A DNA stretch of 64,000 bases from Marinicella sp. (GTDB lineage Bacteria; Pseudomonadota; Gammaproteobacteria; Xanthomonadales; Marinicellaceae): contig OZ246001.1 of NCBI GenBank assembly GCA_965230295.1, positions 160,001 to 224,000 of the forward strand, in the 5' to 3' direction. The position numbers and the translations under genes were made by a program. Position 1 is the stretch's first letter; every line of letters begins with the position of its first letter. The notes under the pieces are model-generated. The model was not told the origin of the DNA, did not search any database, and was given only the letters and a program-made list of their open reading frames with translations. Below, piece by piece: positions 9,549-59,778 of this stretch.

Positions 9549-9696
9549 GGAAAGCTGCTGAGCAGCTTGACCCGCCGAGCCGGTTGGTGAACTTTGTGAA
9601 TCAGAGGCGAAGAGCGCAAGGTAGCATGTCATGTTCGCCGCGGTCGCTTTCACTTTTGTCATGAACAAAAGTGAATGAAGTCCCAAGAACATTCCT
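9549..9696 (+). repeat. Dispersed ~150-bp structured repeat, copy A
   Basis: Nearly identical to 21254-21400: gaaagctgctgagcagcttgacccgccgagc...ttcacttttgt-N5-acaaaagtgaatgaagYcccaagaacattcct. Confidence 0.9.
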
Positions 9697-21253: not shown

Positions 21254-21400
21254 GAAAGCTGCTGAGCAGCTTGACCCGCCGAGCTGGTTGGTGAGCATAG
21301 CGAATCAGAGGCGAAGAGCGCGAGGTAGCATGTCATGTTCGTAGTGGACGTTTTCACTTTTGTCTGGAACAAAAGTGAATGAAGCCCCAAGAACATTCCT
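21254..21400 (+). repeat. Dispersed ~150-bp structured repeat, copy B
   Basis: Collinear near-identity with 9549-9696. Confidence 0.9.
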
Positions 21401-21411
21401 TTTTATGCTGG

Positions 21412-57224: not shown

Positions 57225-58364
57225 TCAAACATTCAATTTGATATTCTCCTTGGTCAAGCCATCCAAACCTCCGAAAACGGTGATGTTGCTGACTTTGTCG
57301 GCCACTTTTTCCAAAGTTTCCAACTCTTTCAAACGTCTCAAAGTTTCGCTTTGATCCATTAACTTTGCGGTGTTCAACAAAGAACGGGTCGCAGCGGTTT
57401 CTTCGCGGCGTTTGATGATGTTGGCTTTAGCTGCTTTTTCGGCCTCAACCACTTGATTCAAAATGGTTTTCATCTCGCCAGGCAAGATGATGTCTTTGAC
57501 ACCCACTTCGACCAAGGTCAAACCAAATTCAGCCACTTTTTTGGCCACAAAACCACGCACAAAAGTGTCAATGGCTTCTTTATCTGCCAACAAAGCGTCC
57601 AACACTTTGGTACCGATGGCTTTTCGCAAGGCCAACTGCAAGGCGTTGTACAAGAATTCCTTGTAGTTCGCCAACTCAGTCACCGCAGTCACCACGTCGC
57701 TTACTTTAAAAGTGGCAGACAAGTTAACCCTTAAGCTCACTTTGTCTTTGGTCAAGATTTCCTGACCGGCCACTTCCATGGTTTGCGCACGGGTATCAAC
57801 GACTTCCACTGCGACAGATTGGTTGTAATTCCAAAAACCGTATTTACCGGCTTTCAAAGTACGTACCAACTGACCATCGATGAACAACAAGCCGACTTGC
57901 TGGTTGGTCACCTCTTTGGTCACCATACCTGCAGACAAGACAGAGGCTTTGGCCGCTTTGGCCAACACCTTCATGTCTTTGGCAGACACTTCGATCTGCT
58001 CAGTGACATTGATGCGTCTGACTTCCACCTGAGCCGCGGTGTTCCAAAACCACTTTTCAGATTGAGGTTTAATCAAATCACTGAATTGACCATCTACATA
58101 GATCAAGGCCACCTCGTTTTCATCGGTGTTGATCACTGTGTAGAAATCTTCGCACAAGCTTGCTTTGTTCCTCAACAACACTTTGACGTCTTTCTGGGTG
58201 ATTTCAGTCGCGGTGATGTCGAATAAACGCACTTTCATGCGGTTACCGAAATCCCAAAACTGGTGTACACCGGCTGTCAAAACAGCTGTCAATTGTCGAT
58301 CGCGAAACAACAAAGCACGTTCGTTGTCAGCAACCACTATTCTTTTTCTAAAAATCATTTTCAT
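57225..58364 (-). CDS. Slipin-family SPFH (band 7) protein
   Basis: Repeated ERALL/GLL beta units, GQEILTKDKVSLRVN, GVKDIILPGEMK, RREETAATRSLLNTAKLM. Confidence 0.92.
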   Translation of the reverse strand: MKMIFRKRIVVADNERALLFRDRQLTAVLTAGVHQFWDFGNRMKVRLFDITATEITQKDVKVLLRNKASLCEDFYTVINTDENEVALIYVDGQFSDLIKPQSEKWFWNTAAQVEVRRINVTEQIEVSAKDMKVLAKAAKASVLSAGMVTKEVTNQQVGLLFIDGQLVRTLKAGKYGFWNYNQSVAVEVVDTRAQTMEVAGQEILTKDKVSLRVNLSATFKVSDVVTAVTELANYKEFLYNALQLALRKAIGTKVLDALLADKEAIDTFVRGFVAKKVAEFGLTLVEVGVKDIILPGEMKTILNQVVEAEKAAKANIIKRREETAATRSLLNTAKLMDQSETLRRLKELETLEKVADKVSNITVFGGLDGLTKENIKLNV

Positions 58365-58379
58365 ATATCCTGTGCGAAT

Positions 58380-58527
58380 AGGAATGTTCTTGGGGCTTCA
58401 TTCACTTTTGTTGCAACAAAAGTGAAAGCGACCGCGGCAAACATGTGTTGAGTTTTCGCTCGCACCTTTCTGACACAGCTCCGCTGTGCCAACCAAGGTG
58501 GCTGGTCAATTTAGTCACAAGTTTTTC
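58380..58527 (-). repeat. Diverged copy E of the dispersed repeat, just upstream of the slipin RBS
   Basis: aggaatgttcttggggcttcattcacttttgttgcaacaaaagtgaaagcgaccgcggc. Confidence 0.85.
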
Positions 58528-58578: not shown

Positions 58579-58601
58579 AAAAAATACACCTTCTTGGGTG
58601 T
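58579..58601 (-). terminator. Putative terminator at the 3' end of the large structured RNA
   Basis: Minus strand acacc-caagaa-ggtgt-attttttt-like (short stem). Confidence 0.45.
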
Positions 58602-58910
58602 TCTGTTCCATGCCTCTCGACATGGGACCGATGCCAGGACCTCCTGACATCGGCAAAGCTTCCTTTCTTTCACCTACCTACCACTGATACCAAGCCATCC
58701 TGATACCAGCCACTTACGCTCTCTCGCCAACCGCACCACCGCAGGCCATCCTGCGTTGGCTTTGATAGACTCAGGCTTAGACAAGCTCAACCATCGTCAA
58801 TCATGTGGAAGATCAGTCTCACGACCACCCAGTGGCCCATGAAGGGTTGTTCTGGTTCCACCAGGTCATGAAGTCACTCAAATCCTTGTGTGTCTGATAC
58901 GTCCTGAGCA

Positions 58911-59056
58911 AGAATGTTCTTGGGGCTTCATTTACTTTTGAAAAATCAAAAGTAAAAGCGCCCACTGCGAACATCTCTCATGTCTATGCCCTCAACTTTC
59001 TGACTCGGTTAATCCTCGCCAACCAAGTTGATGGGGCGAACTGAATTCAGTTCGCC
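58911..59056 (-). repeat. Diverged copy F of the dispersed repeat, inside the putative ncRNA
   Basis: agaatgttcttggggcttcatttacttttgaaaaatcaaaagtaaaagcgcccactgcgaacat. Confidence 0.8.
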
Positions 59057-59314
59057 TAGGTTTGTACCCTGACTTCAATCAGTGGTTTCTCAATTCGGCC
59101 CCAACGGCTCGAAAAGCAGACCAATGCTTCATTGGCAAGAAAGCATGCTGTCTGAGCCATGCCTTCCTGAGTGGTCGTTGTTAGTCGACTGCCTTGTCGT
59201 TGCTACATGTTGGTAGCAATGGGCTTCTCGCCCACCCAACTGAGACTGACCTGTGATGTTTAAAGACGTCACACGTCTGGCTTAGATAGGGCTCTCGCCT
59301 TGGTGCCTTTCGGC

Positions 59315-59459: not shown

Positions 59460-59592
59460 ACCCAATCACCTGGCATACACACCAATAAAACTGGCTGCAC
59501 CGGCCTGCCATCCAGAGACAGGTCCATAAGGGATTTGGATCCTTTGCCATCAATATTCACAACATGAATTTTGATGAAAATATTTCGGGCAT

Positions 59593-59681
59593 AAAAAAAC
59601 CCGATGGAATGACCTATCGGGCTTTACGAAAAAGATTCCTGAAAGGCCATTCAATGCCTTTCAAGATTTTTGAAGGGCATT
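59593..59681 (-). promoter_or_regulatory. Transcription attenuator (alternative hairpins plus intrinsic terminator at 59593-59622)
   Basis: Overlapping pairings 59670-59681/59653-59664, 59656-59664/59639-59647, 59644-59652/59607-59615 and terminator gcccgat...atcgggt followed by a T run. Confidence 0.75.
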
Positions 59682-59778
59682 AAATCAACTGCATACCACG
59701 CAGCACGTTCGAGTCATGACTCGGACATGTCGCTTGCCAGCTAGTGGCAATTTTTATGTTGAAATAATTTAAATTCAT
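59680..59778 (-). CDS. Putative leader peptide (32 aa) MNLNYFNIKIATSWQATCPSHDSNVLRGMQLI
   Basis: ATG..TAA ORF between the promoter and the attenuator; stop codon overlaps the first hairpin strand. Confidence 0.65.
   Translation of the reverse strand: MNLNYFNIKIATSWQATCPSHDSNVLRGMQLI

Follow-up and report, generated by a model that had tools for sequence, protein, structure and literature searches.

Large and intricately folded bacterial RNAs are rare, and RNase P, the group I and group II introns, OLE, GOLLD, ROOL, and raiA have each opened new biology. Here we examine a 64,000-nucleotide (nt) stretch of Marinicella sp. DNA (the window, to which all coordinates refer), in which positions 58579-59314 had been flagged as a putative structured RNA. 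Our analysis showed that the flagged stretch is a genuine, conserved, and elaborately folded non-coding RNA that is uncatalogued. The unit to which it belongs is read on the minus strand, in the order transfer RNA (tRNA)-like module 1, tRNA-like module 2, 955 nt without an open reading frame (ORF) of more than 51 codons, and then a gene for the membrane protein slipin.

Two reports place both GOLLD and ROOL often near tRNAs (PMC5737381, PMC12286853). GOLLD is a large bacterial RNA of many helices that sometimes carries tRNAs in its linker and in one example lies downstream of a Met-tRNA (PMC12286853, PMC5737381), and ROOL averages 581 nt and has multistem junctions (PMC5737381). The RNA described here is like GOLLD in its size, its many helices, and its tRNA neighbourhood, and it falls in the same size class as ROOL, with which it shares that neighbourhood as well. 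Unlike GOLLD, which belongs to phages and prophages, the slipin unit is chromosomal, single-copy, tied to slipin, and without a match to the model, and the adjacent “tRNAs” here appear to be non-decoding mimics that belong to the conserved unit itself. It also differs from ROOL, which is found in other phyla and in phage contexts, in that there is no model match and no conserved pseudoknot has been established in the slipin-linked RNA. OLE is described as large and ornate, with a functional link to a membrane protein encoded close by (PMC3413148). The likeness to OLE is that of a large ornate RNA near a membrane-protein gene, whereas the model does not match, the phylum is different, and the partner is slipin, a partnership that we conjecture. 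To our knowledge, OLE is without tRNA-like modules.

T-box and terminator riboswitch leaders offer another comparison, as they share with the slipin unit a long structured 5' leader and a last helix and U-tract just upstream of an ORF, an arrangement that in the slipin unit is clear outside the Marinicella family, where the slipin start codon comes directly after it; tRNA shape is also central to how T-boxes work. T-boxes bind free tRNA in trans and read its anticodon, whereas the slipin unit carries its tRNA shapes in cis, with no constraint on the anticodon. The unit is also unlike a T-box in that slipin is not an aminoacyl-tRNA or amino-acid gene, the leader is several times larger, and Rfam gives no T-box row. 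Mimics of tRNA are known from longer transcripts, including the E. coli thrS operator, the tufB tRNA-mRNA operon, MALAT1-mascRNA, and viral tRNA-like structures. The resemblance lies in tRNA shapes that sit within a longer RNA, here presumably also as handles for protein binding or processing rather than as decoders. Some of these examples are partial mimics that occur singly, some are genuine tRNAs, and others come from eukaryotes or viruses, and we know of none that joins two full cloverleaf mimics and a domain of at least 350 nt in front of a membrane-scaffold gene.

The original prediction could not assign the stretch to a family, and this assessment stands, as our Rfam scans, which included all of the families named there, matched none but tRNA. 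With Rfam 15 at gathering scores, the whole window returned only two tRNAs in the unit. GOLLD, ROOL, OLE, T-box, the group I and II introns, and RNase P gave no row at an expectation value (E) of 10 or below in the region and in eight homologous loci that lack an insertion described below, and at E<=0.5 none of them gave a row in 14 loci from other families either. The only tmRNA row was an 18-nt T-arm-like fragment in locus L157, which scored 17.7 bits where gathering requires 47. Several other rows were considered and rejected: that for YrlA (25-35 bits, well short of its gathering score of 69) combines the T-arm of module 1 with the D-arm of module 2 and leaves the outer helices unpaired, those for Plastid-ycf2 and psbl are tRNA look-alikes, and that for sX4 (20.7 bits, E 1.5) comes from a single locus and is absent from 14 GC-rich loci. 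Outside the RNA, between it and slipin in a GC-rich relative, L169:1401-1472 matches the Xanthomonas small RNA family sX9 just above threshold (45.5 bits against a gathering score of 44) and is probably a repeat. No similarity was found among 50,697 phage records. We found no published description of the unit in the literature; a mention in supplements, such as the motif lists of PMC5737381, is possible.

Fold and covariation of the core domain

Our comparison used 20 homologues, namely the window together with L010-L023, L089, L094, L109, L111, and L112, obtained by BLAST against the genomes of relatives and by a motif scan of metagenome contigs filtered with nhmmer. Thirteen further true homologues, among 50 pattern matches in named genome records, were left out; all are titled as Marinicella or unclassified gammaproteobacterial assemblies, and their spacer lengths are the same as those of the included loci. 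RNAalifold predicted 20 helices from the 20 sequences, and pairs were counted on alignment A1, with shuffles and with 3' partners slid by one to three columns as controls. The elements of the core, with lengths in base pairs (bp), are as follows.

59314-58810, minus strand: core structured domain with helices H1-H17, from the RNAalifold consensus and pair counts
59252-59242 with 58820-58810, minus strand: closing helix H5, 11 bp, 96.4% of cells paired, both-side changes in 4 of 11 pairs
59178-59167 with 58832-58821, minus strand: helix H10, 12 bp, 90.9% of cells paired, both-side changes in 5 of 11 pairs
Under helix H6, minus strand: junction hairpins H7, H8, and H9, 97-100% of cells paired, with 3, 6, and 3 compensatory pairs
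59136-59117 with 58854-58835, minus strand: long-range helix H12, 17 pairs
59057-58906, minus strand: genome-specific insertion of an interspersed repeat, 152 nt, in the apical loop of helix H16

Across the 139 consensus pairs, 93.1% of 2677 cells are paired, compared with 32.0-43.7% when the 3' partners are slid by one to three columns. Compensatory changes, in which both sides differ, occur in 76 of the 139 pairs (34.7 +/- 3.7 in shuffles, 25-36 when slid) and amount to 216 cells with both-side changes (57.2 in shuffles, 33-58 when slid). None of 500 shuffles reached any of the observed measures of pairing or covariation. The first and last strands of the core form a covarying long-range helix, H5, after which comes a U-rich tract.

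Much of the architecture drawn in the original prediction from a single sequence is recovered by this analysis. It had suggested that covariation be sought in homologues, and in the 20 used here its named long helices do covary: the 11-bp and 12-bp helices correspond to H5 and H10, both of which are supported by compensatory changes, and its junction of three hairpins corresponds to H7, H8, and H9 under H6, all with covariation support. The two GNRA hairpins that it placed at the 5' end, gccGAAAggc (59314-59305) and ggcGAGAgcc (59299-59290), are present and start 6 nt past the tRNA-like element. Helix H12 had not been described; its strands are drawn from a segment that resembles a local palindrome. 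The proposed 9-bp pseudoknot (59086-59078 with 58688-58680) is not conserved and was rejected, as it pairs perfectly only in the window genome, reaches 65.1% of cells across the alignment, and has four to nine sequences unpaired at its five central pairs. A different candidate pseudoknot lies near the 5' end, where AGACG (59278-59274) may pair with CGUCU (59268-59264), interlocked with the covarying helix H4. It is 89% paired and nearly invariant, with compensations in single sequences only, and it also appears in diverged homologues. In addition, the 5' strand of H5/H6 (59239-59246) can pair over 8 bp with an invariant segment at about 59088-59095, with at least 85% of cells paired in each column; this alternative pairing may function as an antiterminator, or may arise by chance because the segments share letters. 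Comparison by eye across a few species showed no pattern for a kissing contact in cis between the anticodon loops and the variable loop of H8. In four homologues (L011, L018, L020, and L022), an extra module of ~230 nt separates the core from the 3' extension (A1 columns ~920-1145), and L020 has an additional run of ~85-nt direct repeats there (A1 columns ~1150-1600).

The insertion at 59057-58906 is missing from all 19 other homologues, and RNA-library contigs of relatives join 58905 directly to 59058. As it is absent from the homologues, the conserved core is ~353 nt long, compared with 505 nt in the window. An inserted repeat accounts for about one quarter of the “~590-nt core” of the original prediction, the 3' hairpins of which are specific to the lineage. 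The insert has 30 matches in the genome at E<=1e-5, including itself and the copy at 58382-58500, and most of these cover a hairpin core of 64-67 nt; a 955-nt query consisting of the RNA and the spacer before slipin gave 43 repeat matches in the 4.0-Mb genome. The structured RNA has survived the insertion of one copy of the repeat into one of its loops. Further copies occur in the window at ~9630-9696 and ~21334-21403, longer versions of ~120-150 nt exist, and weaker copies are found in the genomes of relatives.

The ORF-free stretch has a G+C content of 0.48-0.50, compared with 0.38-0.43 in its flanks, and is G-rich on the minus strand. Its minimum free energy is -293.5 kcal/mol on the minus strand (z -5.45) and -253.1 kcal/mol on the plus strand (z -5.92), both far better than shuffles, so that energy alone shows a potential for structure and does not separate the strands. 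The choice of strand is instead supported by G:U pairs, which make up 300 of the 2677 cells (11.2%) and would be A-C mismatches on the plus strand, where pairing falls to 81.8%. The minus-strand reading of the original prediction is borne out by this count. There is no conserved ORF among the 20 homologues, in which the longest ORFs range from 41 to 144 codons and differ in strand, frame, and position. The longest ORF inside the RNA of the window has 51 codons and lies largely within the inserted repeat.

The tRNA-shaped modules

Two modules that resemble tRNAs precede the core.

59459-59388, minus strand: module 1, 72 nt, called as tRNA-Leu with anticodon UAG by ARAGORN; Rfam tRNA, 51.7 bits
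59385-59321, minus strand: module 2, anticodon loop UGU, missed by ARAGORN; Rfam tRNA, 43.5 bits

Both pass the Rfam tRNA gathering score of 29, with 43-75 bits when the relatives are included. The cloverleaf is kept in both modules by covarying stems and intact D and T loops. Module 2 has a tail that reads ...aaaacca and an acceptor stem of only 3-5 bp. The anticodons are not conserved as would be expected of a functional decoder, since there are seven for module 1 (TAG in seven, TTG in six, and GAA, GTG, CAG, CAT, and TGA in one each of the 18 resolved among 20 loci) and six for module 2 (GTT in seven, TTT in five, CAT in three, ATT and TTG in two each, and TGT in one of 20 loci). Module 1 is without a long variable arm, and a canonical 85-nt tRNA-Leu(UAG) is encoded elsewhere in the genome, as is a canonical tRNA-Thr(UGU), among 41 tRNA genes called by ARAGORN. 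At other loci, ARAGORN calls the modules Asn-att, Asp-atc, Ile-aat, Tyr-ata, Cys-aca, His-atg, Ser-aga, and Thr-agt, and some have 2-nt “anticodons” or loops that the program cannot read. Judged by their sequences, the tRNA-shaped modules are mimics and not ordinary decoders, and tRNA annotations with such odd anticodons in these bacteria are probably not decoders either.

A third, partial tRNA-like piece, composed of a GNRA hairpin and a T-arm-like hairpin, follows module 2 in many lineages. We saw it within the family (L023, L089, L094, L109, L146, and L148), within the order (L159 and L167), and in other orders (L192, L194, and L198). The lineage of the window retains only the GNRA hairpin at 59299-59290, and the two 5' hairpins of the core may thus descend from a decayed third mimic.

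Linkage to slipin and the remaining parts of the unit

To follow the RNA across genomes, we used R1, a covariance model of H12-H17 with 156 positions. R1 gave one match per genome in 15 of 44 family genomes, namely that of the window, 12 of 23 others of the genus, and 2 of 15 of a second genus. A BLAST tally of 17 of the 23 genus genomes was rejected as too high, because it counted genomes that matched nothing but the interspersed repeat. A slipin orthologue is present in 24 of the 44 family genomes and lies beside the R1 match in all 15 R1-positive genomes, and none of the 20 slipin-negative family genomes has an R1 match. Of the nine genomes that are slipin-positive and R1-negative, eight have tRNA-like modules 430-640 nt upstream of the gene, and the ninth has only a gene fragment. 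The spacers of these eight loci carry the same 5' motifs and rebuild H5 and H10 with different letters, and on this evidence from sequence the eight are diverged homologues. Overall, a tRNA-like module is found upstream of the slipin orthologue in 23 of 24 family genomes.

The arrangement extends well beyond the family. In the same order, 62 of 201 genomes have the orthologue, 47 of them outside the family; 35 of these 47 were examined, and the module is present in 34. In the first order set it lies 340-520 nt upstream on the same strand in 15 of 15 loci, and in the second it is found in 19 of 20 stretches, the twentieth being truncated where its contig stops. Of 299 genomes from other gammaproteobacterial orders, 16 have the orthologue, and ARAGORN called the module in 9 of 14 loci examined, with a tenth, L195, recognised by eye. 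Over the family, the order, and the other orders together, the distance from the module to slipin is 190-640 nt. The position directly upstream of slipin, on the same strand, holds across species.

Parts of the fold can be followed at these distances as well. Twelve GC-rich sequences from other families of the order, folded independently, show the same succession of parts: two hairpins, the second of them of the GNRA type, then the 11-bp closing helix, and finally two sub-domains, of which the second has a long helix. In these sequences, 34 of 52 pairs are compensatory. The closing helix (columns 71-81/300-310) has compensatory changes in seven pairs, its flanking strands resemble those of the window, and a U-rich run follows it directly in 12 of 12 sequences. 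In five loci from other orders (L192, L194, L196, L199, and L200), the U-tract behind the closing helix is followed by a ribosome-binding site and the slipin ATG within ~25-35 nt. A scan for a long-range helix followed by a U-tract was positive in 48 of 73 sequences, yet 272 of 730 shuffles were positive too; as it does not discriminate in AT-rich DNA, we relied on it only for the named GC-rich and other-order loci. Run without bias, it recovered the closing helix and U-tract in L160-L163, L165, L167, L185, L192, L194, and L195.

RNA libraries of relatives also contain the element. Assembled contigs were compared from four runs of four studies, chosen because they contained words of the RNA, and contigs carrying the element were obtained from all four, with those over the RNA being 155-451 nt long. 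Three of these contigs, each from a different study (X1 record 1, X3 record 2, and X9 record 11), run across the junction of module 2 and the core with at least 46 nt on either side, which lends weak support to co-transcription of the two. The cover given by the four runs lies outside the flanks 58200-58352 and 59475-59700, where missing cover counts as no finding. Two contigs of one study end at 58816, beside the end of H5, which is a hint at most.

The remaining features of the unit, from its upstream end to the slipin gene, are listed below.

59855-59828, minus strand: promoter-like site TTGACT-16-TAGAAT, 10 of 12 matches, with an A/T-rich UP-like stretch ahead of it
59778-59680, minus strand: small ORF of 32 codons, the stop codon of which abuts alternative hairpins
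59666-59593, minus strand: attenuator-like hairpin pair with covarying stems, including a terminator-like stem (59622-59600) and a U run (59599-59593)
59532-59467, minus strand: structured 5' block, two hairpins within two enclosing helices, strongly covarying
58760-58735 and 58710-58683, minus strand: 3' extension hairpins H18 and H20, specific to the family of Marinicella
58653-58628 and 58627-58606, minus strand: lineage-specific hairpins, followed by a terminator-like hairpin (58601-58586) and a U run, to 58578
58556-58539, minus strand: mini-ORF of five codons (MTEFN*), preceded by a strong ribosome-binding site, GAGG (58568-58565)
58500-58382, minus strand: second copy of the repeat, between the mini-ORF and the slipin gene
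58364-57225, minus strand: slipin/SPFH (Band 7) gene, 379 codons, Pfam Band_7 E 1.3e-31

At the upstream end, the promoter hexamers and the A/T-rich stretch are conserved in those homologues whose aligned stretch extends that far, and the frame of the small ORF remains open in homologues despite insertions and deletions (~24-32 codons, by eye). Together with the hairpin pair, these elements resemble a leader-peptide attenuator that precedes the tRNA-like modules. Weak, sub-threshold Rfam rows for PyrR, Thr_leader, and trpB (E 0.13-2.4), seen in L111, L015, and L023, mark these attenuator-like hairpins and were rejected as candidates for the core RNA. Within the 5' block (alignment columns 17-84), the two hairpins (columns 29-34/42-47 and 57-61/65-69) have both-side changes in three and five pairs, and the motif of the block is recognisable in other orders.

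Downstream of the core, H18 and H20 are paired in 98.8% and 93.4% of cells, with both-side changes in two and six pairs, and are absent in L023, L089, and L109. The 3' hairpins of the original prediction do exist in the window, although no more than 6 of 20 homologues have the first of them and different hairpins take the place of the second elsewhere; what had been described as a U-rich end is more precisely the terminator-like hairpin at 58601-58586 plus its U run. All 20 homologues show nucleotide-level conservation at the start of the mini-ORF, the fifth residue of which is N, T, or Y, and other genera have different mini-ORFs of three to four codons at this position. Public sources name the slipin gene “slipin family protein”. 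Besides slipin, the neighbours include genes for an AraC-type regulator and a hydrolase, and when six nearby ORFs were scanned with Pfam, none was named as a phage gene.

A leader before slipin or a free-standing RNA

The original prediction had envisaged a large, ornate, minus-strand RNA with long-range helices, with which our results agree, and had treated it as an RNA standing alone, whereas it now appears as one domain of a longer unit. With moderate confidence, we interpret the flagged stretch as the large domain at the centre of a conserved, structured, non-coding leader transcript before slipin, that is, of a very large cis-acting leader or attenuator. The linkage to slipin across a bacterial class makes a cis-acting leader at least as likely as a free RNA of the ROOL, OLE, or GOLLD type, and the U-run that shortly precedes the ribosome-binding site and ATG in other orders gives the unit the geometry of a terminator-type leader. 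In such a leader, the promoter, the small ORF with its attenuator, the 5' block, the two modules, and the core onward would be transcribed as one RNA. The tRNA-shaped modules would provide a fold that is recognised by tRNA-handling enzymes, and could serve as handles for processing, stabilisation, or sensing. The closing helix, forming just before the U-tract, would act like an intrinsic terminator, and its formation would decide whether the polymerase reads through into slipin, as in a riboswitch-type leader or a very large attenuator. The terminated or processed product might accumulate as a stable RNA.

Several observations weigh against such a leader. With ~300 nt enclosed by it, the closing helix departs from the canonical form of an intrinsic terminator, and the U-tract after H5 is weak in the window (cttccac). 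In addition, ~450 nt separate H5 from the slipin start there, holding the structured extension, a second terminator, the mini-ORF, and the repeat insertion, so that direct terminator control of slipin is less obvious in the window than in other orders, and slipin may have a promoter of its own. The alternative pairing that might serve as an antiterminator is a candidate only. The homology of the interior between the Marinicella family and distant orders is based on layout and short motifs and not on a single alignment. Finally, the RNA-library contigs cannot show ends, strand, or level, and may reflect carry-over of DNA.

The main rival, which we regard as possible but would not expect, is a free-standing, stable, large non-coding RNA like GOLLD, ROOL, or OLE that is transcribed together with the tRNA-like modules, released by tRNA-processing enzymes, and acts in trans, possibly in an RNA-protein complex with the neighbouring membrane protein, as for OLE, or as a homo-oligomer. 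Such an RNA would suit the size of the core, its many helices, its GNRA loops, and its strong covariation, and the position directly behind tRNA-shaped genes is one described for GOLLD and ROOL in the reports cited above. Within the family, terminator-like ends of its own (the U-rich run after H5, and 58601-58586) separate the RNA from slipin, and the library contigs of 155-451 nt cover it. Given the weak U-run and the 450 nt before slipin in the window, this explanation keeps substantial weight. It does not account for other orders, in which the closing helix and U-tract immediately precede the ribosome-binding site of slipin, nor for the strict linkage to one gene family, which is unlike the phage- and prophage-borne GOLLD and ROOL; the RNA is also single-copy, syntenic, not phage-borne, and without a match to the GOLLD, ROOL, or OLE models. 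The tRNA neighbourhood and the mobile repeats that landed in and near the RNA might also suggest a GOLLD/ROOL-type RNA of a prophage or mobile element inserted beside tRNA genes. We consider this very unlikely, as neither the phage records nor the scanned neighbours gave any sign of a phage, the RNA occupies the same syntenic place in a single copy in 15 of 15 carriers, and the “tRNAs” are part of the conserved unit.

Two further explanations would deny that there is a conserved RNA at all. Drifting anticodons, the poor acceptor stem of module 2, the third partial T-arm, and the plus-strand z of -5.9 could be read as signs of a decaying tRNA array with a neutral spacer, the structure of which would be an effect of base composition. 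This is slightly less credible still, because compensatory changes occur in 76 of 139 pairs, pairing is 93% against 32-44% in slid controls, the stems of the modules are kept by covariation, and the layout is conserved across orders of very different G+C content. That the stretch is a protein-coding gene or pseudogene has a near-negligible chance of being correct: some homologues do contain ORFs of 100-144 codons, but these lie on different strands, in different frames, and in different alignment columns, and their products are unlike one another.

Returning to the leader before slipin, a more specific and more speculative proposal, which we think rather unlikely, is a new class of riboregulator that senses through two tRNA mimics, tethered in cis and free to drift in their anticodons, and that couples slipin to the condition of the tRNA machinery or to attacks upon it. 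Cleavage by RNase P or Z during processing, addition of CCA, a tRNA-binding protein, or cleavage by a toxin at the mimics would then set whether the terminator helix closes, and the ~300-nt domain might also persist as a stable and possibly oligomeric RNA.

Taken together, these results describe an uncatalogued class of RNA in which what appear to be two complete tRNA mimics are fused to a multi-junction domain of at least 350 nt with strong covariation. Its range covers AT-rich marine bacteria, GC-rich members of the same order, and other gammaproteobacterial orders. The mimics are called as tRNA genes, and their masking as such is probably why screens of intergenic regions missed the RNA behind them. 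Its fixed genetic partner is a slipin/SPFH membrane scaffold, a protein whose regulation in bacteria is poorly understood, and because the unit has both a fixed partner gene and a terminator-like closing helix, its function can be addressed directly with reporter fusions. If the mimics do act as a sensor, synthesis of the slipin scaffold would be coupled in these bacteria to the state of the tRNA machinery, or to attack on it.

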